This document shows positions 3,141 to 25,368 of a DNA stretch of 32,000 nt, piece by piece. This DNA is from Candidatus Altimarinota bacterium (GTDB taxonomy: Bacteria; Patescibacteriota; Gracilibacteria; UBA1369): the NCBI GenBank assembly GCA_041659405.1, contig JBAZYK010000003.1:30001-62000 (forward strand), given 5' to 3'. The notes below the pieces were generated by a model that worked only from the letters and a program-made list of their open reading frames with translations, was not told where the DNA came from and made no database searches. A program made the position numbers and the translations under genes. Position 1 is the first letter of the stretch; the number at the start of each line of letters is the position of its first letter.

Positions 3141-3581
3141 TTAGTAAGTATTCGCGCTGGCAATTGCCGAATCCCCGCGAACAAAAATTATATCGGAAGC
3201 TTTTTTCATACCTTCAAGTCTTCCCGTATTAATAATATTATTCATCGATTTAGACTGAGCCAAACGCGCATCCTTAATTTCATTCTCACTTAAAAGCTGC
3301 TGGCGATCCGCTTCCAATTTTCTTAAATCGTACCCTTTTGTGGCAACCTGATTAAAATGCGCCAAATAAGCCATCCCAATCAAGACAATTCCCACAGCAA
3401 GAGCCATAATCAAAGTTACCGGCCCAAATTGCAGATTGATTTTTGGTAGAGCCACAGCCCTGGCAGCGCTTTGATTCGAAACAATCCCGGAACGCAAACT
3501 TGAACGTGAACGTCTATCCCACAATGACCTTTGAGCAAAACCGTTTCTATATGGACTGCGTGATAGTGAAAGTTGGGACAT
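3141..3581 (-). CDS. FtsL-like bitopic cell-division protein
   Basis: Lies immediately downstream of rsmH, the canonical dcw position. Single TM (VTLIMALAVGIVLIGMAYLAHF) followed by a coiled-coil-like segment (DLRKLEADRQQLLSENEIKDARLAQ) and an LEGMKKA...IIFV tail. Confidence 0.55.
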   Translation of the reverse strand: MSQLSLSRSPYRNGFAQRSLWDRRSRSSLRSGIVSNQSAARAVALPKINLQFGPVTLIMALAVGIVLIGMAYLAHFNQVATKGYDLRKLEADRQQLLSENEIKDARLAQSKSMNNIINTGRLEGMKKASDIIFVRGDSAIASANTY

Positions 3582-3611: not shown

Positions 3612-5006
3612 TTAGATTTTTTCCGCCACACGTAATTTTGCGCTGCGGCTGCGAGGATTTTTGGTTAACTCAGTTTCACCCGGAGTTAGTGGTTTTTTAG
3701 TTACAATTTTTAGTTTCGGATCAAGATGAGTTGTCGTTAGTTGATCAGGTAAATTAATGTAATCTCGGGCCTGATCCTTAAAGAAATTTTTAACCAGACG
3801 ATCTTCCAAAGAATGATAGGCAATAATGGCCAAACGACCCTTCTTTTTCAAAAGGCCCATAGCCTGTTCCATCACACTTTGCAAAGATTCCAATTCCTTG
3901 TTTACTTCAATGCGCAAAGCCTGAAACACGCGAGTTGCAGGGTGAATATGCCCCTGACGTTTAATATATTTCTCAATAAAACCAGCCAGTTCCGTAGTTG
4001 TTTTAAAAGAACGGCTTCGACGACGTCGCACAATTTCACGCGCCAACAAACGGGATTTCATTTCTTCACCATATTCATAAAAAATTCGGGCAAGCTCTTT
4101 TTCAGGATAACTGTTGATAACATGAGCCGCAGTCAATTCCTGATTTTTATCAAAACGCATATCCAAAGGCCCTTCACGCAAAAAAGAAAATCCACGTTCA
4201 GCCACATCAACCTGAGGAGAAGAAAGACCAAGATCCAACAAAATCGCATCGACACCGTGAATCTTCAATTTCTTTAATTCTTCAGCCAAATTACGGAAAT
4301 TACTTTGAATATAATGAATTCTGCTATCAAATTCCTTCAATTTTTCCTGGGCACGTTTCAAATTTTCCTCGTCCAATTCAAAAGCAACCAATTTGGAATC
4401 GCCATTTGCATTGGTCAAAAGCGCATGAGCATGTCCACCCAAACCAAGTGTTCCATCCACGATTACTTTTTTACCCGGCAGTTGCAAACCTTCAAGAACC
4501 TCTCGCAACAAAACCGGATCATGCATTGGCTGAACAGACTCAACAAGTTGAGTTGGCAGAGCCGGTATCTCGATTTCAACTTTTGGTTTCAAAACCTTGG
4601 CAATTTTCAAAACTTTCACTTTCTTTAAGATCACTTTTTTGGCTTTCTTAACTTGAATTTTCTTAGCCTGAACTTTAGCCTTTGCCTTAATTAACGGCTT
4701 CGTCTTTGCTTTTGATTGAACCTTCACTTTTGGCTGAACCTTTTTAACATTAGCTTTTGCCAACGGCTTTGCCTTAATTTTTGGTTGAACCTTCGCTTTA
4801 GCTTTTTTCTGTAATTTTGGTTGAGCTTTAGCTTTAGGTTGTACTTTCACCTTAGGTTGAACCTTCTTTATCGGCTTTGCTATAACCTTTTTTTGTTGAG
4901 CTTTTTTCGAAAAAAGCATCTCTTTCAATTTAGAAAAAGTGCTTTTATTTTTTTTAGGTGCCTGAGCTTTATTTTTTGGGATTAATTTTGATTTTTTCTT
5001 GATCAT
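3612..5006 (-). CDS. rsmH: 16S rRNA (cytosine1402-N4)-methyltransferase RsmH with a ~160-aa Lys-rich N-terminal extension
   Basis: HDPVLLREVLEGL, DGTLGLGGHA (SAM site), LLDLGLSSPQVD and AYHSLEDRLVK motifs from residue 161 onward. Residues 1-160 are K/V/Q/P/A repeats. An alternative internal start ATG at 4526 would give a canonical-length RsmH. Confidence 0.9.
   Translation of the reverse strand: MIKKKSKLIPKNKAQAPKKNKSTFSKLKEMLFSKKAQQKKVIAKPIKKVQPKVKVQPKAKAQPKLQKKAKAKVQPKIKAKPLAKANVKKVQPKVKVQSKAKTKPLIKAKAKVQAKKIQVKKAKKVILKKVKVLKIAKVLKPKVEIEIPALPTQLVESVQPMHDPVLLREVLEGLQLPGKKVIVDGTLGLGGHAHALLTNANGDSKLVAFELDEENLKRAQEKLKEFDSRIHYIQSNFRNLAEELKKLKIHGVDAILLDLGLSSPQVDVAERGFSFLREGPLDMRFDKNQELTAAHVINSYPEKELARIFYEYGEEMKSRLLAREIVRRRRSRSFKTTTELAGFIEKYIKRQGHIHPATRVFQALRIEVNKELESLQSVMEQAMGLLKKKGRLAIIAYHSLEDRLVKNFFKDQARDYINLPDQLTTTHLDPKLKIVTKKPLTPGETELTKNPRSRSAKLRVAEKI
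4640..4880 (-). repeat. degenerate in-frame tandem repeats encoding (K/A)KVQPK-type units
   Basis: The plus-strand 10-mer TTGAACCTTC recurs at 4716, 4785 and 4857 (69- and 72-nt spacing). TTTGCCTTAATT recurs twice. All copies lie inside the rsmH 5' extension. Confidence 0.6.
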
Positions 5007-5379: not shown

Positions 5380-5407
5380 TTTACCTCAAAGCAAAAAACC
5401 TTATAAT
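5380..5407 (+). promoter_or_regulatory. sigma70-like promoter TTTACC-16-TATAAT placed for a leaderless transcript of the 5414 gene
   Basis: The consensus -10 TATAAT at 5402-5407 ends 6 nt before the ATG at 5414. There is no room for an SD. Confidence 0.45.
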
Positions 5408-5413
5408 ATCAGC

Positions 5414-5893
5414 ATGATATATCTCCCTCCGGAACTTCTGGTTCTCTTTACATCAATGCTTCCAATTGTGGAACTCCGCGGAGGCATCCCCTTAGGTCTT
5501 CTTTTGCATTTACCAATAGAAGCCGCTTTTTTTTGGGCGGAAATCGGCAACATGATTCCGATCTTTTTTATTTTGAAACTGCTCGGCCCCGTTTCTGATT
5601 TCCTCATCAAACATTCCAAGTTTTTTGAAAAATTTTTCCATAAACTTTTCACCATAACGCGTGAAAAACATGGCCACAAAATGCAAAAATGGGGTTCGGT
5701 CTTTCTTGTCATATTTATTGCGATTCCCCTGCCCGGCACCGGCGCCTGGACCGGAGCATTGTTGGCCTTTTTGTTTGATATTCCTTTCTGGAAAGCGGTT
5801 TTACTTATTTTAATCGGCAACCTTGCCGCCGGCCTATTGATCAGTTTTGGCTTTGGATCAGCCATCGAAGTGGCAAAATTGTTCGTAAAATAA
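5414..5893 (+). CDS. small multidrug-export-like membrane protein (COG2426 / Sm_multidrug_ex family)
   Basis: N-terminal LPIVELRGGIPLGL signature and four hydrophobic segments. The 159-aa length is typical of the family. Confidence 0.7.
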   Translation: MIYLPPELLVLFTSMLPIVELRGGIPLGLLLHLPIEAAFFWAEIGNMIPIFFILKLLGPVSDFLIKHSKFFEKFFHKLFTITREKHGHKMQKWGSVFLVIFIAIPLPGTGAWTGALLAFLFDIPFWKAVLLILIGNLAAGLLISFGFGSAIEVAKLFVK

Positions 5894-5927
5894 AATTTTA
5901 TTTGACATTTATTAATCGATATATAAA

Positions 5928-6224
5928 ATGCCAACTCAAATTTTATGTTTTTTAAATATGCCTTTTTTGGAAGACGATTGTCATCAACAGCATCATACAG
6001 AAGCTGATGGAGAACCATTAACTAAATGTGCGAGGTTAATACTTGAAGCAAAAAAACAGGATCCCTCAATTCCTATTTGTAATGTAATTTGCCCAATTTC
6101 AAAAAAAACTTCCCCCGTAGGGATTAAACTAGCTGTTCATGATCGTTGCCACATGTCTTTAACAACTCTTAAAGCCTTGCAAAGTGGACTAACAAGGCAA
6201 GTATTTCAAGTTTTGAAATACTAG
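5928..6224 (+). CDS. questionable hypothetical Cys/His-rich 98-aa ORF
   Basis: It is the only sizeable ORF in the 333-bp gap between convergent genes. There is no homology I recognise, and it overlaps a shadow ORF on the other strand. Confidence 0.25.
   Translation: MPTQILCFLNMPFLEDDCHQQHHTEADGEPLTKCARLILEAKKQDPSIPICNVICPISKKTSPVGIKLAVHDRCHMSLTTLKALQSGLTRQVFQVLKY
6200..6222. terminator. perfect 10-bp-stem hairpin (AGTATTTCAA-GTT-TTGAAATACT) between convergent genes; possible bidirectional terminator
   Basis: The inverted repeat was read directly. It is AT-rich and has no flanking U-tract, so terminator function is uncertain. Confidence 0.35.
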
Positions 6225-6226
6225 CT

Positions 6227-6976
6227 TCAATTCTTCAAAAACTCCTTCACTTCCGAAATCTTTGCCCCTTCACGCAAAATCACTGCGTGGCCATTTTCAA
6301 AGCCAATAATTGTTGATGGAGGATTTTTCAACACGCCCGCGCCTGATTCAGAAACGCTCACCCCGGATTCAGACAAGCCAAGTTCTCCACCATCCAAGAC
6401 CAAAGCAATTTTTTCACTTTCCTGCAAAGCTCCTTTATACTGCTTCAAAAAATCAGCAACAGTGTACGCCTCCGGTTCACCAGCCAAATTTGCACTGGTA
6501 GTCGTAAGCGGACCACCAAAACCCGCAATCAACATTTGTGAAATCTCCGAATCCGGACAACGAACCCCAACATTAACCTGCCCTTCATTAAAAAAAGTCG
6601 GCAAAGTTTTTTCGGCTAATGGCTGGCGCACATGCTCATCAAAATTTTGATCTTCTTTCCGCGCCACTTTTTTCGGCAAAACCAACGTTACCGGACCCGG
6701 CCAAAATCGCTCTGCCAAGCGCAAAGCCACTTCATTAAATTCTGCATACTTCTTTGCCTCATCCAAATTTCGCACCATCATACTCACGGGCTTTTTAAAA
6801 TCGCGGCCCTTAGCCACATACAAATCCTGCAAAGCCTCCTGATTAAAAACATCCACCGCAAAACCATAACAAGTTTCTGTTGGATGAACCACCACGCCAC
6901 CCTGCTGCAAAAGCTTTACCGCTTTCGCAATAATTTCCGATTGAGGATTTTTGGGATTGATCGACACGATTTTCAT
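6227..6976 (-). CDS. tsaC: L-threonylcarbamoyladenylate synthase (TsaC/YrdC/Sua5 family, single domain)
   Basis: GGVVVHPTETCYGFAVD, AKGRDFKKPVSMMV, RFWPGPVTLVL and TTSANLAGEP motifs. Confidence 0.85.
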   Translation of the reverse strand: MKIVSINPKNPQSEIIAKAVKLLQQGGVVVHPTETCYGFAVDVFNQEALQDLYVAKGRDFKKPVSMMVRNLDEAKKYAEFNEVALRLAERFWPGPVTLVLPKKVARKEDQNFDEHVRQPLAEKTLPTFFNEGQVNVGVRCPDSEISQMLIAGFGGPLTTTSANLAGEPEAYTVADFLKQYKGALQESEKIALVLDGGELGLSESGVSVSESGAGVLKNPPSTIIGFENGHAVILREGAKISEVKEFLKN

Positions 6977-7140
6977 ATTTCCTTTAATTACTATTCAAGC
7001 TTCGCTATACTAGCGGCGAACAAAATTCCGGGCAAGCCCGATCAACGAGCACGAAACAAACCTCAAGCTCCCCTCACAATCCTAAAAAAACCCGGACACG
7101 ACTCCCCTATTTAAAAAAATATTTCCTAACCCCCCTTTTC

Positions 7141-12165: not shown

Positions 12166-12681
12166 ATGAGCACAAGAGATGACTTTGATCCAAAAACTAT
12201 TGAGGCAATAGGAAAACGGGCCTCTTATATTTGTTCAAATCCGACTTGCAAGAGCTTAACTCTATGCCCTTCAGCAACGGATGAAAGCAAATTTATATAT
12301 GTAGGCAAAGCAGCCCACATTACCGCCGCAGCAGTAGGCGGCCCACGATACGATGAAACACTTTTATCCGACGAGAGAAAATCAATCGGTAATGCAATTT
12401 TTCTATGCTCAAATTGTGCCGATATGATCGACAAAAATAAAGGCATTGATTTCACCATCGATCAACTGAAAAAGTGGAAACAGGAACACGAAACATGGAC
12501 CGCCCAGAATTTAAACAAAAGTTTAAACTCTCCCATTACTACCATCGACGGCGAACACATCGCTAGAGGAAAAGGCAATGTCACCGGAATCAGAACAACC
12601 AAGCCTACATTCTTTAAACCGGGAACAAAATCTTTAGCCGAAGGAGAAGGCAACATAACAGCAACTCACATAGGTTCTTAA
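12166..12681 (+). CDS. His-Me finger (HNH)-like protein with degenerate C-terminal His
   Basis: CSNPTCKSLTLCP ... AAHITAAAVGGPRYDE ... NAIFLCSNCADMIDKN matches the C-x-C / AHI...GGPR / N..LC..C(H)..ID layout of HNH nucleases, with Ala in place of the last His. The C-terminal part has an internal duplication (ARGKGNVTG / AEGEGNITA). Confidence 0.55.
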   Translation: MSTRDDFDPKTIEAIGKRASYICSNPTCKSLTLCPSATDESKFIYVGKAAHITAAAVGGPRYDETLLSDERKSIGNAIFLCSNCADMIDKNKGIDFTIDQLKKWKQEHETWTAQNLNKSLNSPITTIDGEHIARGKGNVTGIRTTKPTFFKPGTKSLAEGEGNITATHIGS

Positions 12682-13618: not shown

Positions 13619-14782
13619 ATGGAAAACGAAATAAGCAACGAATACATCGAAAATGCAATAAACGAGTTAGAAAAATTCTTTGGCGTTAAAGAGCCAGTTT
13701 TTAGTGAAAATATTTTTTCATTAATTAGGGGAGGTAAGGTCAAAGATGCAATGAAATTGATAGCTTTTCAACTTGGCTTGCCTATTGATATCAATATTAC
13801 AAATGTCCCGAATGACTATAGAGCCCAGAGCGGTGACAACCAATTTCATAGCACCCACCTAGTTAATGTTCATCAACACGGATCTGGTAGCGAAGGTATT
13901 ACAGCTCAAGTAACCATTCCTGGCAATTTACCATTTTACGGATCTTCAGCACTAAACGGATATCCTATCAATGTTAAGATAAGTAAAAATTGTACGGAAC
14001 ATACTGTCGTATTCGCAATGATAATGGCTCATGAACTTTCACATATATTACTGTATTCATTAAGTCATTCTAAAAAGGAAAATGAATTTTATACTGACCT
14101 TACCGCCATAATGTTAGGTTTCCAAAATATTTTCCAAAACGGGCGCAAAATTACAAAAACTGATGTAGAAGAAGGGTTTATGAGTACAACGACTAGAACA
14201 CAGACGACAACTTATGGGTACTTAAATGATAATCAGTTTAATTTTGCTCACAATAAAATAAATTTAATATTAGAAAAAAACAGAGAAAGAAAAAAACTTT
14301 TATCAGAGGAATTCAAAAGATTTACAAAGTTATTATCAAAATATGAAAAAACGCTATTTAAATTTAAAAATTTTTTAGAATATCTAACAAAAAATACTAA
14401 CAAAAAAATCTCTGGCGAAGATGGTAAAAAGATGATGTCGTTTTTCCAACCTGGATATATGGATGAGCTATGCTTAGTACCAAAAGAATATAAGGATAAG
14501 CAACAAATAATCAAAAAATTTTTAAAAGAGCTTTCCCATTATACGGATCAAAGATTAAATCAATTATCAGCTTATGCAAACAATCTGAAAAAATATTCCA
14601 GTGAATTAAAAATTCAACTCATTCCTCTCAAAAAAGATGTTAAAATGTTGAAGAAATATGTTAGCTATAAATATAGGATAAAAAAAACTCTCTCTCTTTT
14701 GTTTAAAGGAGCAAAAAATAATTTACATCTCATAACACGACATATGAAATTAAAGAAAAATTCACATAAAATCCCTCAGTAA
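13619..14782 (+). CDS. HExxH zinc-metallopeptidase-like protein with Lys-rich helical C-terminal half
   Basis: VVFAMIMAHELSHILLYS followed about 15 aa later by ENEFYTDLTAIMLGF (a gluzincin-like third ligand). The layout resembles ImmA/IrrE- or SprT-type cores. The C-terminal ~190 aa are K/L/E-rich. The gene is visibly more A+T-rich than its neighbours. Confidence 0.5.
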   Translation: MENEISNEYIENAINELEKFFGVKEPVFSENIFSLIRGGKVKDAMKLIAFQLGLPIDINITNVPNDYRAQSGDNQFHSTHLVNVHQHGSGSEGITAQVTIPGNLPFYGSSALNGYPINVKISKNCTEHTVVFAMIMAHELSHILLYSLSHSKKENEFYTDLTAIMLGFQNIFQNGRKITKTDVEEGFMSTTTRTQTTTYGYLNDNQFNFAHNKINLILEKNRERKKLLSEEFKRFTKLLSKYEKTLFKFKNFLEYLTKNTNKKISGEDGKKMMSFFQPGYMDELCLVPKEYKDKQQIIKKFLKELSHYTDQRLNQLSAYANNLKKYSSELKIQLIPLKKDVKMLKKYVSYKYRIKKTLSLLFKGAKNNLHLITRHMKLKKNSHKIPQ

Positions 14783-15048
14783 AATACGAAACGAAGTACT
14801 CAAACTTACCGATAAAAAAAATAAATCATCGCATCACTAAATTGACTACCAGTCCAACTCCTGCCACAACTCAAAATTTCGGGACGGGACGGCGAGAACG
14901 ACCATTTTAGGCCTCAAACAAGCCAACTTGTTTTTATGAGAATACCTAAGGAGTAACATTCCTCACACATAAACGCCCAGGCACGACCAACCTATTTCAT
15001 AAAAATTTCATCTCCCGTTTAGAAATCGTTAATGTTTCTGGATTATAT

Positions 15049-15077
15049 TTGACCAGCGCACCTAAATTGGATATACT
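15049..15077 (+). promoter_or_regulatory. promoter TTGACC-17-TATACT upstream of the AbrB-type antitoxin gene
   Basis: -35 at 15049-15054 and -10 at 15072-15077, about 30 nt upstream of the ATG at 15107. Confidence 0.45.
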
Positions 15078-15106
15078 TAAAGTAAGATTTTCTTACATTT
15101 ATCCAT

Positions 15107-15376
15107 ATGGCTACATTCGACATCACAAGTCTTTCCTCAAAAGGACAAATCGTTATCCCCAACAATCTAAGAAAAGAACTGGGAATGACACCGGGAATTA
15201 AGCTTATTATTTTCACTGATGGCTCTAATCTGCTCATAAAACCTGTGCCATCCCCAAAAATAGAAACCTTTCAAAAACTCATCAAAGAAAGTCGGGCATT
15301 AGTCAAAAAGAATAAATTCACCGCCTCAGATGTGGAAAAAATCATCAAACAAACCAGAAACGAAAATCGTTCTTGA
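15107..15376 (+). CDS. AbrB/MazE/SpoVT-family antitoxin
   Basis: LSSKGQIVIPNNLRKELGMTPGIKLIIFTDGSNLLIKPV is a classic SpoVT-AbrB swapped-hairpin domain. The gene overlaps a PIN-like reading frame at its 3' end. Confidence 0.8.
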   Translation: MATFDITSLSSKGQIVIPNNLRKELGMTPGIKLIIFTDGSNLLIKPVPSPKIETFQKLIKESRALVKKNKFTASDVEKIIKQTRNENRS

Positions 15377-15498
15377 TACAAATGTTCTAATTTCCGGGAT
15401 CTTCTGGAGATCAAGATCTACTCACATTAAAAACCATATCCAAAATCAAAATACTAACGCCTACAGATTTCCTGAAAGTTTTAAGAAAATCCCTTTAA
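15330..15498 (+). pseudogene. PIN-domain (VapC/PIN_3-like) toxin remnant with internal deletion and frameshift
   Basis: One frame (15363-15407) reads KIVLDTNVLISGIFW, a canonical PIN N-terminus with the first acidic residue. The +1 frame (15406-15498) reads GDQDLLTLKTISKIKILTPTDFLKVLKKSL-stop, a canonical PIN_3 C-terminus. The central bulk of a normal ~130-aa domain is missing. Confidence 0.6.
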
Positions 15499-15502
15499 AA
15501 CC

Positions 15503-15826
15503 CTATCTATACAAATAAACCGTGCCGCGGAAATTTTCAGCTCCATCATTCCCATCCACACCATAATCTATTTGCAACCTCAAAGTGGTGCGAGGGTACT
15601 TCCTGTTAATTGCAACAGCCTTCTGGTTCGCAGAAACATCTCTATGATCAAGCCAAGCAACCACTTTCCAACCTTCATTTTGCAGGGCATTAATAAAATA
15701 AAGATTTTGCTGACTGATTCCTAAATCTTTCAAAAATGTAAACACCGTAACTTTATCAACCTTATCAAGCTCCAAATATTGCGACTCATCAATTATCGGA
15801 ACTTTTAAATCATCCGGTCCACCCAT
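15503..15826 (-). CDS. hypothetical 107-aa protein
   Basis: Clean ORF that converges on the PIN remnant with a 5-nt gap. No motif recognised. Confidence 0.45.
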   Translation of the reverse strand: MGGPDDLKVPIIDESQYLELDKVDKVTVFTFLKDLGISQQNLYFINALQNEGWKVVAWLDHRDVSANQKAVAINRKYPRTTLRLQIDYGVDGNDGAENFRGTVYLYR

Positions 15827-15921
15827 AATAAATTTTTAAAATATAAACCATTAAATTCACCGGCAGGTTAACTCCAATAAAAATTCTGTCAAGATTTTGT
15901 CATCTGGATGACCTCACTTTC

Positions 15922-15957
15922 AAAAAAAGGGCCAAGGTTTTAACCAAAGCCCTTTTT
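15922..15957 (-). terminator. rho-independent terminator (bidirectional architecture) downstream of the 16032..16292 gene
   Basis: AAAGGGC (15926-15932) pairs with GCCCTTT (15949-15955), and an inner GGT/ACC pairing is possible. An A-run precedes it and a T-run follows on the plus strand, so the minus strand reads stem plus TTTTTTT. Confidence 0.65.
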
Positions 15958-16031
15958 CGTCTGATTTTTTGAAGGATCATCTGGTGAAAATTAGCCCTCA
16001 TAATCGAAATTTTCAACCCGCCACCACCAAC

Positions 16032-16292
16032 TCAAGCTACTTTCCCCCATGTTTCCTTAACTTTATCGATTTTCTTGGCATCGTTCAAATCAGCATCATT
16101 GATGTAATCCTCCAAATAACCACAAGCGGAACAGATATAACAATCCAAAAAAAGCCTTGAAAAAGACAAGGGGCCACCCAAAGGAAGCAAACATCTCTGT
16201 CCTGCTTTTTGGTTTAATTTGTCGGTGTAAATTTCATTTCCACTACACTTGGGACATTTCCCTGTTTGAAGGCCGGAAGTCGGTTTGCTCAT
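16032..16292 (-). CDS. 86-aa zinc-ribbon protein
   Basis: CPKCSGNE ... CSACGYLE pairs form a single ribbon. Followed by the terminator at 15922-15957. Confidence 0.5.
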   Translation of the reverse strand: MSKPTSGLQTGKCPKCSGNEIYTDKLNQKAGQRCLLPLGGPLSFSRLFLDCYICSACGYLEDYINDADLNDAKKIDKVKETWGKVA

Positions 16293-16328
16293 TAAAAAAG
16301 AGGAATTATAAATTAAAGAGAATAATGA

Positions 16329-20071: not shown

Positions 20072-20869
20072 ATGCTTGTTCTTTCTACAGACACATTAAG
20101 AGGATACGGTCTTAACCGCATTTTTAACTTCATTAAGCTGGCTGACTACGCCGGAGTTGATTTGGCGATTGATCCAAAAAACTTCGATACCCAAAATACC
20201 GAGTATATTAAGTCCCTTTCGGAGCAGTACGATTTGCCAATTACCGCAATTCAAACTCCTCCAAACGCCAACGCGCACAAAATTCAGGAAGCGGTAAAAA
20301 TGGCCAAAGAACTGGACTGCAAAATTATTGTAATTCAACCACCACGCATTTTTGATTTCAAATACATCACATGGCTCAAAAACGAAATTCCCAAGATTCG
20401 TCAAAAGGAAAATATTTCGATTGCGCTGGAAAACGCCTCTTCGGAAACTTTCCTTGGGATTATTCCCGAACACGCCATGGGCAACATTATTGAAATGAAA
20501 AAATTCAAGCACGCCTGTATTGATACAACCCGTGTCGCTCAAAAAAAAGATGACCTGATCCGTGTTTATAAAGCTCTAAAAAAATTCCTGGTTCACGTTC
20601 ATTTATCAAATGTAAAAACCGGAAAACAATATTACCTTCCTCAAGAAGGAATCTTGCCTTTGGAAAGCTTTTTGACCAAGTTGAAGCAGGAAAATTACGC
20701 AGGCAATGTTTCGCTCAAGGTAAATCCAAAATTTTTAGCCTGCGGTGAAGACGAAAAAATTCTAAAGTCATTAAAAGAAGTTAAACTTTTCTACGATACC
20801 TATTTCACCAACGTCAAAGTTATGCCAACAAGCATAACCGACGAGGAGGATACAAAAGAGGCAAAATAG
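20072..20869 (+). CDS. xylose-isomerase-like TIM-barrel protein (sugar phosphate isomerase/epimerase family)
   Basis: Alternating beta/alpha pattern with ISIALEN, ACIDTTR and HVHLSN metal-ligand-like blocks. The length is typical. Confidence 0.6.
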   Translation: MLVLSTDTLRGYGLNRIFNFIKLADYAGVDLAIDPKNFDTQNTEYIKSLSEQYDLPITAIQTPPNANAHKIQEAVKMAKELDCKIIVIQPPRIFDFKYITWLKNEIPKIRQKENISIALENASSETFLGIIPEHAMGNIIEMKKFKHACIDTTRVAQKKDDLIRVYKALKKFLVHVHLSNVKTGKQYYLPQEGILPLESFLTKLKQENYAGNVSLKVNPKFLACGEDEKILKSLKEVKLFYDTYFTNVKVMPTSITDEEDTKEAK

Positions 20870-20871
20870 AT

Positions 20872-20899
20872 TTGACACAGCGTTTTTTTCAGATAGAAT
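20872..20899 (+). promoter_or_regulatory. promoter TTGACA-16-TAGAAT upstream of rpoB
   Basis: Consensus -35 at 20872-20877 and -10 at 20894-20899. This leaves a leader of about 130 nt, with small hairpins (GCTCT-GTTTTT-AGAGC; CCGG-TAAGGA-CCGG), before the ATG at 21037. Confidence 0.6.
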
Positions 20900-21036
20900 G
20901 TCTTAGCTATCAGATTTTTGCTCTGTTTTTAGAGCGAGCTTGTGTTGTGGAAGATAGTAAAAGTCACCGGTAAGGACCGGAAAGCCTTTATATAAGGCAA
21001 AAACGACTTACGCTAACTTCTTCACTTTTTTCAAAT

Positions 21037-24000
21037 ATGGCTCCAAAAAAAGTCAAAGCTAAAAAAGGCGCTCCTGCAAAGAAGGCCAAATTTACCAAAC
21101 CTGCCAAAAAGGTAAAGGTTAATTCAGCCAAGCCAAAAAAAGGAGCTAAGCCTTTTAAGAAACTTGTTGCATCTATTAAAAAATCTTTAACTAAACCCGT
21201 AATGAAATCTAAGCCAAAGGCGTCGGCTAAACCTGCCAAGGCAAAGGTCAAAAAGACCCCAGCTAAAGCAGCGTCCAAGCCAACAAAAAAAGTAGTCGTA
21301 GCTAAAAAAGCAGTTCCGGTTGCTAAAAAACCGGTAGTAAAAGCTCCGGTCAAGGCAATCAAACCGGTTAAAAAAGAGACACCAGCTCCTACAAAAGCTG
21401 TAAAAGCAACCCCTAAGGCACCTGAAAAAGCCCCTGTAGAAGCCGCAAAAGCTCCCGCAGAAGCTCCAAAAAGAAACGCCTTCACCTCCGGATATAAAGC
21501 CGGCGGATTAAAATTTGCGAACAGAAACCACACAAAAGCTTCCAATGCTCCAAAAACACCAAAAGAAGAAGAGCGTTATCAGGCTCAACAAGTAGTGGTA
21601 AGAGCATCACAGGAAAAAGTTGGAAAAGCTGTAGCAAAAATGAAGGCAAGCTATTCCATGTCCGAAGAAATTTCCAAGATCCTTCCAAAGGAAAACATCA
21701 TCATGAAGGAAGCTAGCAATCGTAAATATTACGCTCCCCGCCTGGATCAAAACGTAGTTCTTCCAAATTTGATTGAAATTCAGATCGATTCTTATCGCTG
21801 GTTTTTGGAAGATGGTATCCGTGAACTTTTGGACGAAATCACTCCTATTACAGACTTTTCCGGCAAGAAACTTGAACTTCACTTTTTAGAGCATTCCATA
21901 GGTGAACCAAAATACGATGCGGAAACCTGCAAATCCAAGAACATGACCTACGAAGCTCCATTAAAAGTTCACGTTCAACTTATCAATAAAGAATCCGGTG
22001 AAATTAAAGAACAGGACGTTTTCTTGGGCGGAATCCCACTTATGACCAACAAAGGTACATTTATTATCAATGGTATTGAACGTGTTGTGGTTTCTCAGCT
22101 CGTTCGTTCCCCTGGTGTATTTTTCTCTAAAAATGCGCTTTCCATTGAATATAATAACGCCAAAATTATTCCAAAACGTGGTGCCTGGTTGGAAATTGAA
22201 ACCGACAAAAAGGGCATCATCACGGTTAAAATTGACCGTAAACGCAAAATTCACATCACTTCCCTACTCCGTGTATTTGGATACAAAACCGATACTGAAA
22301 TTCTTGAACTTTTCAAAGACGTTTTAAAGCCTGAAAAAAACTTCATTCTTAGCACTTTGGAAAAAGACAGTGCCAAGACCGAAGATGAGGCTTACCAAAG
22401 CATTTATCGCAAGATTCGTCCCGGTGACCTTGCCACTCCGGAAAATGCAAAATCATTGATCCAATCAATGTTTTTTGACTATCGTAAATATGATATGGGT
22501 CCGGTTGCCCGTTACAAGTTGAACAAGCGTTTTCAAATTGATGTCCCAAACAATAAAAACTATCACACTTTCCAGGTTAAAGATCTTGTTGAAATCCTTA
22601 GATACCTCATTCGTCTAAACAACGCCGAGCTTCAACCGGATGATATTGATCATCTTAGTAATCGCCGTATTCGTGCCGTTGGTGAACTTGTTCAAAACAA
22701 ATTCCGCGTTGGTTTACTCCGCACCGATCGTATCGCTAAAGATCGCATGACAGTGATGGATCTTGAAACGGTAACTCCTACACAACTTATCAACTCCCGT
22801 CCAATTACAGCAGCCCTCCGTGAATTCTATGCAAGTTCTCAACTTTCACAGTTCATGGATCAAACCAATCCATTGGCAGAATTGGCTCACAAACGTCGTC
22901 TTTCCGCCATGGGTCCGGGTGGTCTTTCCCGTGAACGTGCTTCGTTTGATGTACGTGACGTGCATCCTTCCCATTATGGCCGTATTTGTCCAATCGCCAC
23001 ACCTGAAGGTCCAAACATTGGTCTAGTAGTGCATTTGGCAACTTATGCCCGCGTAAATAAATATGGTTTCATTGAAACTCCATTCCGTGAAGTTTCTCAT
23101 ATCTGTGTAAACAAAGCCAAGGAATTGACCGGCCGCACAATCACTGAAAATGTTATCAATCCAAAAAACAAGAAGGTTGTGGCTAAAGCCGGAACCAAAA
23201 TCGACGAAAAACTCGCCAAAGAAATTGAAAAGCTTGATCTGGAAAAAATTGCAGTTAGACCTCACATCACCAGCAGCGTTCGTTATTACGATGCCGATGA
23301 AGAAAAAGGCTTAACAATTGCTCAAGCCAACACCCCACTGGGCGAAAAAGGTGAAATCATTGCTTCACAGGCTTCCGCCCGTATCAATAGCGAACCAACC
23401 CTCGCCCATACGGAAGATATTACTCATATTGATATCTCTCCAAAACAGATTATTTCAGAAACTACAGCCCTAATTCCGTTCTTGGAACATGATGATAATA
23501 CCCGTGCTTCCATGGGTTCAAACATGCAACGTCAGGCAGTATCTTTGATTTGCCCAACCGCTCCGGTAGTTGGAACAGGTATGGAAGAAATCGTGGCAAA
23601 AAGCTCCGGACAAGTAACTTTGGCCGAAGATAACGGTATCGTTTCCTATGTTGATGCCGACATGGTTACGGTTATCTATGACAATGGTAAAAAAGCGACT
23701 TACAAATTACAAACTTATGAACGCAGCAATCAGGGAACATGTATCCACCAACGTGCCCGTGTAACCAAAGCTCAACGCATAACCCGTGGTGATGTACTTG
23801 CGGATGGCGCGGCAACCGAAAATGGTGAACTTGCGCTTGGTCGCAACCTGCTCGTAGCTTACGTCGCATGGCAGGGTTACAACTTTGAAGATGCTGTAAT
23901 TATTTCCGATCGTGTTGTGAAGAATGGCTATTTTGATTCCGTACATATCGAAACATTCACAATGGATGTACGCGATACAAAACTTGGGCCTGAAATTATC

Positions 24001-25368
24001 ACCCGTGATATTCCAAACGTTGGTGAAGCAAGACTTAAAGATCTCGATGACGAAGGTATCGTTCGCATTGGTGCAACCGTACATGAAGGCGACATTCTTG
24101 TTGGTAAAATTACTCCAAAAGGTGAAACCGAGCTTACCGCGGAAGAAAGACTTTTACGCGCTATCTTCGGCGACAAAGCCCGTGATGTTAAAGATACTTC
24201 CTTACGTCTTCCGGGTGGAGAAGGTGGAAAAATCGTTGGAATCCAGGTTTTCTCACGCAAAAATAATGATGAACTTTCAAACGGTGTTAACCAACAAATT
24301 AGAGTTAGTGTAGCTCAAACCCGTAAGATTTCCATTGGTGATAAAGTTGCCGGACGCCATGGTAACAAAGGTGTCATCTCTATAATCGTTCCTGCAGAAG
24401 ACATGCCATTTTTACCGGATGGAACCAGCGTTGATATCGTTTTGAATCCACTTGGTGTATCCAGTCGTATGAACATTGGTCAGATTTTGGAGACACACGC
24501 AGGTTGGGCCGCTCAAAAAATGGGCATCAAGGTTGCTACTCCGGCTTTGAATGGTATTACCACCGATCAAATTACCGGAATGTTGAAAGAAGCTAAATTA
24601 CCTGAAGATGGTAAACTTCAACTTTATGATGGTCTAAGCGGTGAACCGTTTGATCACAAATCAACAGTGGGTATTACCTACATCATGAAACTGAGCCATT
24701 TGATTGAAGATAAGATCCATGCTCGTTCCGTAGGGCCATACTCTCTTGTTACTCAACAGCCACTTGGAGGTAAAGCACAACATGGAGGTCAGCGTTTTGG
24801 TGAAATGGAAGTTTGGGCACTTGAAGCCTATGGTGCAGCCCACACTTTGCAGGAAATGCTTACAATTAAATCTGATGATGTTTACGGCCGTGCAAAAGCC
24901 TACGAGGCAATTGTAAAAGGCGAACCAATCAGAAAACCACGTACTCCGGAATCCTTCAACGTATTGGTTAAAGAACTTCAAAGTTTGGGTTTGAGCGTTA
25001 AATTACAACAAACCGAACAAGCTCGTTTACTTGCCGAGGAAGACATCTACACAGCCGAGGAAAGCGAAAAAGAAGGAACAACAGTGATTAACGAAAACGA
25101 TGTTAATCGTCCACCGGTTGATCCTGAAGTTGAAAAATTGTTGGATAGTAAAGTAGAGGTAAAGGCCGCCGCAAAAGAACTGGACCAAGTTGGTGACCTG
25201 GAAGATGAAGCAAAAAAAGAACATCACGAAGAAGAAGATCCTGAAATCGATTTGGAAGATGCGGACCTTCATGAACCCGGTGACCTGGAAACACTAGCCA
25301 TAGAACCAACCGACGAAGACCTGGCCGCAGTTGAAGAAATAGTAAAAGAAATCAAAGAAGAAGAGTAA
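21037..25368 (+). CDS. rpoB: DNA-directed RNA polymerase beta subunit with Lys/Ala/Pro-rich N-terminal extension and acidic C-terminal tail
   Basis: The conserved core runs from about residue 228 (RKYYAPRLD...LPNLIEIQIDSYRWFL) through GDKVAGRHGNKGVIS, NPLGVSSRMNIGQ and GGQRFGEMEVWALEAYGAA. Residues 1-145 are AKKPxK-type repeats. The last ~120 aa are D/E-rich. Confidence 0.95.
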   Translation: MAPKKVKAKKGAPAKKAKFTKPAKKVKVNSAKPKKGAKPFKKLVASIKKSLTKPVMKSKPKASAKPAKAKVKKTPAKAASKPTKKVVVAKKAVPVAKKPVVKAPVKAIKPVKKETPAPTKAVKATPKAPEKAPVEAAKAPAEAPKRNAFTSGYKAGGLKFANRNHTKASNAPKTPKEEERYQAQQVVVRASQEKVGKAVAKMKASYSMSEEISKILPKENIIMKEASNRKYYAPRLDQNVVLPNLIEIQIDSYRWFLEDGIRELLDEITPITDFSGKKLELHFLEHSIGEPKYDAETCKSKNMTYEAPLKVHVQLINKESGEIKEQDVFLGGIPLMTNKGTFIINGIERVVVSQLVRSPGVFFSKNALSIEYNNAKIIPKRGAWLEIETDKKGIITVKIDRKRKIHITSLLRVFGYKTDTEILELFKDVLKPEKNFILSTLEKDSAKTEDEAYQSIYRKIRPGDLATPENAKSLIQSMFFDYRKYDMGPVARYKLNKRFQIDVPNNKNYHTFQVKDLVEILRYLIRLNNAELQPDDIDHLSNRRIRAVGELVQNKFRVGLLRTDRIAKDRMTVMDLETVTPTQLINSRPITAALREFYASSQLSQFMDQTNPLAELAHKRRLSAMGPGGLSRERASFDVRDVHPSHYGRICPIATPEGPNIGLVVHLATYARVNKYGFIETPFREVSHICVNKAKELTGRTITENVINPKNKKVVAKAGTKIDEKLAKEIEKLDLEKIAVRPHITSSVRYYDADEEKGLTIAQANTPLGEKGEIIASQASARINSEPTLAHTEDITHIDISPKQIISETTALIPFLEHDDNTRASMGSNMQRQAVSLICPTAPVVGTGMEEIVAKSSGQVTLAEDNGIVSYVDADMVTVIYDNGKKATYKLQTYERSNQGTCIHQRARVTKAQRITRGDVLADGAATENGELALGRNLLVAYVAWQGYNFEDAVIISDRVVKNGYFDSVHIETFTMDVRDTKLGPEIITRDIPNVGEARLKDLDDEGIVRIGATVHEGDILVGKITPKGETELTAEERLLRAIFGDKARDVKDTSLRLPGGEGGKIVGIQVFSRKNNDELSNGVNQQIRVSVAQTRKISIGDKVAGRHGNKGVISIIVPAEDMPFLPDGTSVDIVLNPLGVSSRMNIGQILETHAGWAAQKMGIKVATPALNGITTDQITGMLKEAKLPEDGKLQLYDGLSGEPFDHKSTVGITYIMKLSHLIEDKIHARSVGPYSLVTQQPLGGKAQHGGQRFGEMEVWALEAYGAAHTLQEMLTIKSDDVYGRAKAYEAIVKGEPIRKPRTPESFNVLVKELQSLGLSVKLQQTEQARLLAEEDIYTAEESEKEGTTVINENDVNRPPVDPEVEKLLDSKVEVKAAAKELDQVGDLEDEAKKEHHEEEDPEIDLEDADLHEPGDLETLAIEPTDEDLAAVEEIVKEIKEEE

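Follow-up and report, generated by a model that had tools for sequence, protein, structure and literature searches.

The rpoB gene in a 32,000-nucleotide stretch of DNA from a Candidatus Altimarinota bacterium (assembly GCA_041659405.1, contig JBAZYK010000003.1, positions 30,001–62,000 of the forward strand; the whole stretch is referred to here as the window) encodes an RNA polymerase (RNAP) β subunit with a long lysine-rich N-terminal extension. Comparative sequence analysis indicates that this extension forms a genuine, translated and lineage-specific disordered polycationic tail fused to the N-terminus of β. By analogy with characterized systems, we infer that the tail binds nucleic acids and that this has a consequence for transcription.

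The protein belongs to the bacterial RpoB family based on its full domain set and on the equivalog model. All six Pfam domains (PF04563, PF04561, PF04565, PF10385, PF00562 and PF04560) score above their cutoffs, and the NCBIfam rpoB equivalog TIGR02013 matches with 1547 bits relative to a cutoff of 801. The first Pfam domain, Rpb2_1, begins at residue 244. In alignments to RpoB chains of solved structure (matches include 3mlq, 4xax and 4kbj), residue 14 of Bacillus RpoB corresponds to residue 229 of the window protein, residue 8 of Thermus RpoB to residue 235, residue 19 of E. coli RpoB to residue 237 and residue 27 of mycobacterial RpoB to residues 224–227. Overall, residues 8–27 of the solved chains are the first to match, at residues 224–237, and residues 1–223 align to no solved RpoB chain. 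Because the solved chains align only from this point, the canonical N-terminus maps to approximately residue 216–228, consistent with the initial annotation of this DNA, made from the letters alone, which put the start of the conserved core near residue 228. By this comparison, about 215–227 N-terminal residues are additional to a canonical RpoB. They precede the β1/protrusion domain, the docking site of the RNAP-interacting domain of Mfd (Mfd-RID) and of CarD on the upstream side of the cleft.

Residues 1–145 of the extension consist of 33% Lys, 21% Ala, 14% Pro and 12% Val, contain no Arg and no Asp, and carry a net charge of +44. Residues 146–227 are mixed in composition (15% Lys, 13% Ala, 4% Pro, 6% Val, 5% Arg, no Asp, net charge +8) and correspond to the linker of about 80 residues that had been proposed. 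Methionines occur at positions 1, 56, 202, 208 and 223, the last three of them within the linker. The high net positive charge, together with predicted disorder, makes the tail a candidate member of the disordered, nucleic-acid-binding polycations known from topoisomerase I (TopA) and archaeal Rpo13. It also has the composition of a histone H1 C-terminal domain (Lys approximately 30–40%, rich in Ala and Pro, poor in Arg, disordered), as the initial annotation had recognized, and the resemblance is one of composition only. The AKKPAKK/KPVKK repeats described there were confirmed only as a Lys-rich stretch of about 145 residues. No tandem array of these units was found: KPAKK and KPVKK occur once each, and Tandem Repeats Finder reports just a 21-nt repeat of 2.2 copies at 21426–21471. 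The tail is a compositional bias, not a repeat array. An antisense open reading frame (ORF) of 185 codons, rich in Phe, Leu, Ala and Gly, overlaps the tail-coding DNA (20988..21545, − strand) and is most likely a shadow of the Lys, Ala and Pro codons and no real gene.

Residues 1–145 match no Pfam or NCBIfam model. The winged helix of linker histones H1/H5 (PF00538) is matched neither by the full RpoB nor by the tail, even at E ≤ 10, and at the same threshold the tail matches neither Hc1 nor HC2 (PF07382); the tail of one homologue (P0115) reaches 26.2 bits with HC2, below the 40-bit cutoff. No bacterial DNA-binding domain of the HU/IHF fold was found in the window RpoB. Searching with residues 1–145, the pure Lys-rich segment, gave 5919 candidates sharing words with it, none with E ≤ 0.001, and in the absence of position-specific homologues the tail is not traceable to a donor gene.

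The structure of RpoB residues 1–427 was predicted with AlphaFold2 from a 47-row alignment of full-length search matches. Residues 1–176 have no secondary structure (predicted local distance difference test score, pLDDT, 45–53), two helices at residues 177–202 and 208–215 of the linker are of low confidence (pLDDT 53–59), and the protrusion/lobe fold follows C-terminal to them. Among closer relatives the 15–45 residues N-terminal to the core are conserved in sequence, with the motifs ...AQEKV.KAVAK.KA... and EEISK(I/L)LPKENI(I/V)MKE. The predicted anatomy is that of a disordered polycation, a short helical and conserved junction, and a canonical β subunit.

Across the tail-coding DNA the rpoB frame has no stop in 227 codons (681 nt), whereas 16 stops interrupt each of the other two forward frames. 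The exact window RpoB is present in NCBI as a protein of a metagenome-assembled genome labeled Candidatus Gracilibacteria bacterium. Among the 120 best RpoB matches (68–84% identity over the part aligned by BLAST; 1166–1464 aa; labeled Peregrinibacteria, Gracilibacteria or Patescibacteria), approximately 110 have a called N-terminal extension of 37–245 aa with 22–38% Lys, as measured from the core start, and nearly all of these extensions start with MPKK or MAKK. We also collected 80 metagenome loci with a clade-specific query and read their DNA independently of gene calls. In more than 60 of them the rpoB frame is open for 70–246 codons upstream of the core and begins with ATG and the same MPKK/MAKK-type start, with 2–22 stops in the other frames. 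Conservation of the open Lys-rich frame in orthologs, proposed at the outset as a check, is thus strongly positive in both collections.

Between closely related pairs, the ratio of nonsynonymous to synonymous substitution rates (dN/dS) is 0.12–0.28 in the tail and 0.006–0.08 in the core (first 500 codons). When the DNA was aligned with no protein guide, mismatch frequencies at codon positions 1, 2 and 3 were 0.157, 0.136 and 0.265. Based on the open frame, the dN/dS values and the third-position bias, we conclude that the tail is translated and under purifying selection. This selection is much weaker than that on the core and acts on composition and not on position.

Some apparently tail-less proteins in NCBI reflect inconsistent annotation (loci L161, L162, L163 and L139, corresponding to P0072, P0075, P0120 and P0083). 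P0072 and P0075 are called from internal or non-ATG starts, although an intact Lys-rich frame beginning MPKK.../MAKK... lies upstream of each; for P0120, the frame ahead of the called start is open and Lys-rich to the contig edge, as it is at L139. The tail-less calls P0072, P0075 and P0120 are start-calling or contig-edge artefacts. The genes of the window lack Shine–Dalgarno motifs and have A/T-rich, often TAATTA-like upstream regions (e.g., 26151–26180 and 30683–30712), which suggests initiation independent of Shine–Dalgarno sequences. Since the genome generally lacks them, their absence at 21037 is normal. The internal methionines 202, 208 and 223, named early on as alternative starts, are present, but they are not conserved across the clade (position 223 is often Leu, Ile or Phe in the junction motif of relatives) and are not accompanied by an internal promoter.

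The tail region also appears from its sequence context to be transcribed as part of rpoB. The σ70-type promoter noted in the initial annotation is the sole promoter-like site in 20500–22000. In 43 of 48 relatives an equivalent (TTGAC(A/T)-16-TAnAAT) precedes the extended ATG by 50–212 nt, and the tail-coding DNA of relatives, 18.4 kb in all, yielded no internal promoter. Between promoter and gene, a stem formed by GCUAUC (20906–20911) and GAUAGU (20953–20958) encloses a hairpin and a conserved purine-rich, GGAUGAGUUAAGGA-like motif, and a pyrimidine-rich box directly precedes the ATG. Single-sequence folding recovers the closing stem in 22 of 24 relatives, compared with 36% of shuffled sequences, and its arms covary (GCUAUC:GAUAGC, GCUACC:GGUAGC, AAGACC:GGUCUU). 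Rfam has no family match anywhere in the window, the leader included. In distant relatives the leader motif is strongly complementary to the UUCCUUGACC box before the ATG (z of −2 to −5); in the window and in its nearest relatives z is approximately 0, and this pairing is not claimed here. The structured leader may be an autoregulatory element.

The Lys tail was not found in other CPR (candidate phyla radiation) lineages or in the other phyla examined. The CPR loci compared were a Gracilibacteria-labeled locus (L001), Buchananbacteria, Parcubacteria and other Patescibacteria; the outgroup RpoBs were retrieved from genome contigs with the N-terminal half of the core, a query swamped by the universal RpoB motif, and all are at most 61% identical. 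An in-frame stop lies shortly upstream of the core in the other CPR lineages, Chloroflexi, Firmicutes, Actinobacteria and Cyanobacteria, and an evident ATG lies about 5–15 residues before the RK(S/Y)F...LPxLIE motif in CPR, Chloroflexi, Firmicutes and cyanobacterial loci. The short outgroup N-termini also hold when TGA is read as Gly (genetic code 25). The most distant relatives within the clade (70–76% anchor identity) have mildly basic N-termini of 15–32 residues that already begin with MPKK or MAKK, whereas closer relatives have N-termini of 50–250 residues. Tail length varies even within 90%-identity clusters, whose proteins range from 1367 to 1423 aa. This distribution indicates that the tail is an innovation of a Peregrinibacteria-type clade that has since expanded and contracted. 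Fusion or fission of a separate Lys-rich gene was considered for the tail-less relatives: no such upstream gene was found, one locus (L137) having a frameshift and another (L138) being simply tail-less.

The opposite end of the same subunit is also charged. The 113-residue C-terminal tail consists of 26% Glu and 12% Asp with a net charge of −33, and an acidic C-tail of 37–154 aa is present in all 120 homologues. Similar acidic C-tails, without a Lys tail, occur in Peptococcaceae, Dethiobacter and some Chloroflexi, and basal relatives with N-ends of only 15–32 aa have one as well. Because it is found in other phyla and in relatives without a long Lys tail, the acidic C-tail is older and not clade-specific. 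Across the homologues the median charges are +28.5 for the N-tail and −29 for the C-tail, with a median sum of +3. The lengths of the two tails are correlated (Spearman 0.52) and their charges weakly so (rho 0.25), in both cases uncorrected for phylogeny. Co-evolution toward charge balance was rejected as the main explanation of the N-tail based on this weak correlation and on the greater age and wider occurrence of the acidic tail.

A second protein of the window carries a tail of the same kind. The 16S rRNA methyltransferase RsmH (MraW) has a Lys-rich N-terminal extension with KVQPKxKA-like motifs, and 44 of its 120 closest homologues have Lys-rich N-extensions of 43–290 aa; 46 have extensions of at least 40 aa, of which two were left out because they are only 11–13% Lys. 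One homologue combines a 290-aa extension with a sub-threshold match to the HC2 Pfam model. We looked for Lys-rich intervals in the related loci and the window, which together span about 800 kb and contain 628 ORFs of 120 aa or more. Apart from rpoB and the RsmH of the window, such intervals occur only in a mixed Lys/Glu insertion of rpoC and in two other ORFs that are weakly Lys-rich. A proteome-wide lysine bias was rejected as the cause of the tail, given that such intervals are rare among these roughly 600 ORFs. By this survey, the Lys tail is an appendage used selectively, on at least two enzymes that act on nucleic acids. The RpoC insertion is probably coiled and lies at about residues 140–260 (rpoC, 26181–30092); it is also present in the relatives L082, L122, L126, L130 and L138.

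Tails dominated by Lys, Ala and Pro, poor in Arg and disordered, are also those of the histone H1 C-terminal domain, chlamydial Hc1/Hc2, Pseudomonas AlgP, mycobacterial HupB and Streptomyces HupS, and the N-terminal extension of Deinococcus HU. For all of them, non-specific binding to polyanions is either presumed or shown. The RpoB tail differs from them in its partner, which is a core subunit of RNAP and not a nucleoid protein. Few known proteins are as conserved as the core subunits of RNAP, and their lineage-specific additions are usually folded insertions within the chain (e.g., BBM2 and SBHM); in Helicobacter and Wolbachia, β and β′ are fused. Sequence insertions of bacterial β and β′ were reportedly catalogued by Lane and Darst in 2010. 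Like these insertions, the RpoB tail is an addition confined to one clade in an RNAP subunit that is universally conserved, but it is terminal, disordered and highly charged.

The C-terminal Lys repeats of actinobacterial TopA make the complex of the enzyme with DNA more stable and give the enzyme high processivity (Strzalka et al. 2017, PMC5714199). Like the RpoB tail, they are a long, Lys/Ala/Pro-rich, low-complexity, lineage-specific appendage of variable length, with an acidic stretch, on an essential DNA-tracking enzyme. They differ in belonging to another enzyme in another phylum and in being C-terminal, and the experimental support is TopA's, the RpoB tail being known from sequence. The N-end of archaeal Rpo13 is rich in Glu and its C-end in Lys; its C-terminus binds double-stranded DNA non-specifically (Wojtas et al. 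2012, PMC3479171), and the protein was proposed to stabilize RNAP on DNA (PMC3479171). As in the window RpoB, an RNAP component thus combines one acidic and one Lys-rich disordered end. Rpo13 is, however, a small separate subunit of Crenarchaeota, about 100 aa long, and its tails are short, whereas the tails of 145–227 and 113 aa described here lie within the catalytic β subunit of a bacterium. In Streptomyces DdbA, an H1-like domain is fused to a DksA-like RNAP-binding domain (PMC3643593), another case in which the transcription apparatus is joined to an H1-like DNA-binding tail; there the tail sits on a dissociable secondary-channel factor, and here it is a covalent part of β. The acidic C-tail of RpoB has a counterpart in the RNAP-associated, polyanionic disordered tail of the δ subunit (RpoE) of Firmicutes (PMC7749165); δ is a separate subunit, and the acidic RpoB tail occurs in several phyla. 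By analogy, the RpoB tail would work most like the TopA Lys repeats and the Lys-rich end of Rpo13.

On this basis we lean toward the view that the tail is a sequence-independent nucleic-acid tether that raises the local DNA affinity of RNAP and its retention. The chain charge is approximately +44 to +52. The 45–50 or so Lys charges on a 145-residue random coil would attach to the phosphate backbone of DNA close to RNAP, which would raise the non-specific DNA affinity of the polymerase and keep it on the nucleoid. Promoter and elongation complexes would probably also be stabilized. The tail is expected to leave the core beside the β1/protrusion domain, on the upstream side of the cleft, and a coil of 145 residues is long enough to reach the DNA, whether upstream or downstream, or the RNA as it exits. 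Binding by the N-tail may be moderated by the acidic C-tail of β, or the C-tail may compete with it.

Several observations weigh against this view or limit it. DNA and RNA binding are indistinguishable from the sequence, and the tail on RsmH argues against a role specific to transcription. Tail length varies 6-fold, with neither positional conservation nor a homologue detectable by sequence. At L138, which is 82% identical over an anchor of about 190 residues at the core start, a stop lies three codons upstream of the start (approximately 6990–7000 of that locus) and there is no tail. At L137 a frameshift falls within the Lys-rich tail (approximately 6600–7003); misassembly of an A-run or pseudogenization of the tail could explain it. 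Interruptions in orthologs had been named in advance as grounds for abandoning the tail; these two loci are the real exceptions, and because of them we regard the tail as not strictly essential. A tail-less isoform may also arise from Met 202, 208 or 223 as an additional start. The initial annotation further suggested that the tail compensates for missing accessory factors. This RNAP-specific idea is weakened because RsmH has the same kind of conserved Lys-rich N-tail, which points instead to a generic polyanion-binding appendage, for DNA or RNA, on several nucleic-acid enzymes of the lineage.

The alternatives concern whether the extension is made, whether it matters and what it binds. It is scarcely credible that translation truly starts at Met 202, 208 or 223 and that what looks like a Lys-rich frame is a long 5′ leader rich in A. 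Internal starts in some NCBI annotations (P0072, P0075 and P0120) and an AAGGAA located 10 nt before Met 223 would fit such a leader, but they are outweighed by the single frame that stays open across more than 60 diverged loci, the retained MPKK/MAKK start, the third-position bias, the low dN/dS and the lack of conservation of Met 223. We consider it quite unlikely that the tail is a tolerated low-complexity expansion with no specific function, produced when replication slips on A-rich DNA at a terminus that tolerates added residues. The rapid change in length even within 90%-identity clusters, the lack of positional conservation and the tail-less L138 are what such an expansion would leave. 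On the other hand, the same extreme composition persists in relatives even where the tails have diverged too far to be aligned, with acidic residues and Arg almost excluded. The dN/dS ratio stays well under 1, and both the MPKK start and the position of the promoter are conserved. The tail is carried selectively, by two enzymes of nucleic-acid metabolism and by hardly any of the roughly 600 other ORFs.

An unlikely but serious alternative to a DNA tether is that the tail primarily binds RNA (the nascent transcript, rRNA or ribosomes) and acts as a chaperone or as a coupler of transcription with translation or with rRNA processing. RsmH, with the same kind of tail, acts on 16S rRNA in the 30S subunit, and Lys-rich disordered regions are found on RNA-processing enzymes of eukaryotic small nucleolar ribonucleoproteins (PMC11528048). 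The composition of Lys, Ala and Pro without Arg fits DNA-binding H1 and HU tails at least equally, however, and polylysine binds DNA and RNA alike, so that the sequence does not discriminate. Pairing of the basic N-tail with the acidic C-tail, either as intramolecular auto-inhibition released by DNA or as intermolecular clustering of RNAP into condensates, seems very doubtful to us. The nearly balanced median charges and the length correlation are consistent with it, and analogues exist in the oppositely charged ends of Rpo13, in the topoisomerase I Lys repeats that end in acidic residues and in the acidic δ subunit that takes part in the recycling of Bacillus RNAP (PMC7749165). The charge correlation is weak and uncorrected for phylogeny, though, and the acidic C-tail predates the basic N-tail and does not depend on it, as its presence in Peptococcaceae, Dethiobacter, some Chloroflexi and basal relatives indicates. 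A broader and distinctly improbable speculation is that RNAP acts as an abundant polyelectrolyte associated with the nucleoid or with RNA, its N-tail of +45 to +65 and its C-tail of −30 driving RNAP clusters, condensates or ribosome tethering and replacing accessory or nucleoid proteins absent from reduced genomes, with the module reused on RsmH.

The surroundings of rpoB in the window are listed with the main features in Table 1 or given here. Downstream lie rpoC, rpsL and rpsG, and an ssb gene for a single-strand DNA-binding protein of 215 aa (25482–26129) lies between rpoB and rpoC, an order shared by 36 of the 54 relatives with rpoC in view. Upstream is a xylose-isomerase-like TIM-barrel gene (20072–20869), not rplJ–rplL, and this gene is kept upstream of rpoB in 34 of 66 loci. 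The ORFs at 23–2110 (695 aa), 3141–3581, 5401–6018 and 12166–12681 have no Pfam match. The region 14000–16300 is low in G+C (0.30–0.36) and contains no ORF of at least 110 aa.

Table 1 Coordinates of the rpoB and rsmH features in the window
Feature	Coordinates	Strand	Basis or remark
RsmH/MraW 16S rRNA methyltransferase	3612..5006	−	Pfam MraW domain, residues 160–463
Lys-rich N-extension of RsmH, ~158 aa, 34% Lys	4533..5006	−	Precedes the MraW domain at residue 160
σ70-type rpoB promoter, TTGACA-16-TAGAAT	20872..20899	+	11/12 consensus matches
rpoB 5′ untranslated leader	20906..21036	+	Architecture conserved in relatives
rpoB ORF	21037..25368	+	ATG start, 1443 aa
Lys/Ala/Pro-rich polycationic disordered tail, residues 1–145	21037..21471	+	Composition, AlphaFold2 coil
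Linker, residues 146–227	21472..21717	+	Two AlphaFold2 helices, junction motif
Canonical RpoB core, residues 228–1330	21718..25026	+	Six Pfam domains, TIGR02013 equivalog, alignment to solved chains
Acidic disordered RpoB C-tail, residues 1331–1443, and stop codon	25027..25368	+	Composition

In the literature searched for Peregrinibacteria or CPR RpoB and for Lys-rich or H1-like tails, no description was found; most subscription journals lie outside the coverage, and the negative result is suggestive and no proof. The founding paper on the Peribacteria genome contains no mention of RNA polymerase, rpoB, lysine, histone or nucleoid. A Lys-rich disordered tail on a nucleic-acid enzyme is of a known kind; one on the catalytic core of RNAP is apparently undescribed. 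For work on this clade there is a practical consequence, as rpoB is called inconsistently and some NCBI records trim the tail, which matters for RpoB phylogenies and for length filters. For its biology, an H1-like polycation of 100–250 residues on β, clade-wide at the level of a candidate phylum, would be, so far as the literature searched shows, an undescribed way for RNAP to find its template and keep hold of it. Although the organisms are uncultured, this hypothesis is testable through heterologous expression. The parallel with RsmH suggests a broader and unstudied use of Lys-rich disordered tails on the nucleic-acid enzymes of these bacteria.

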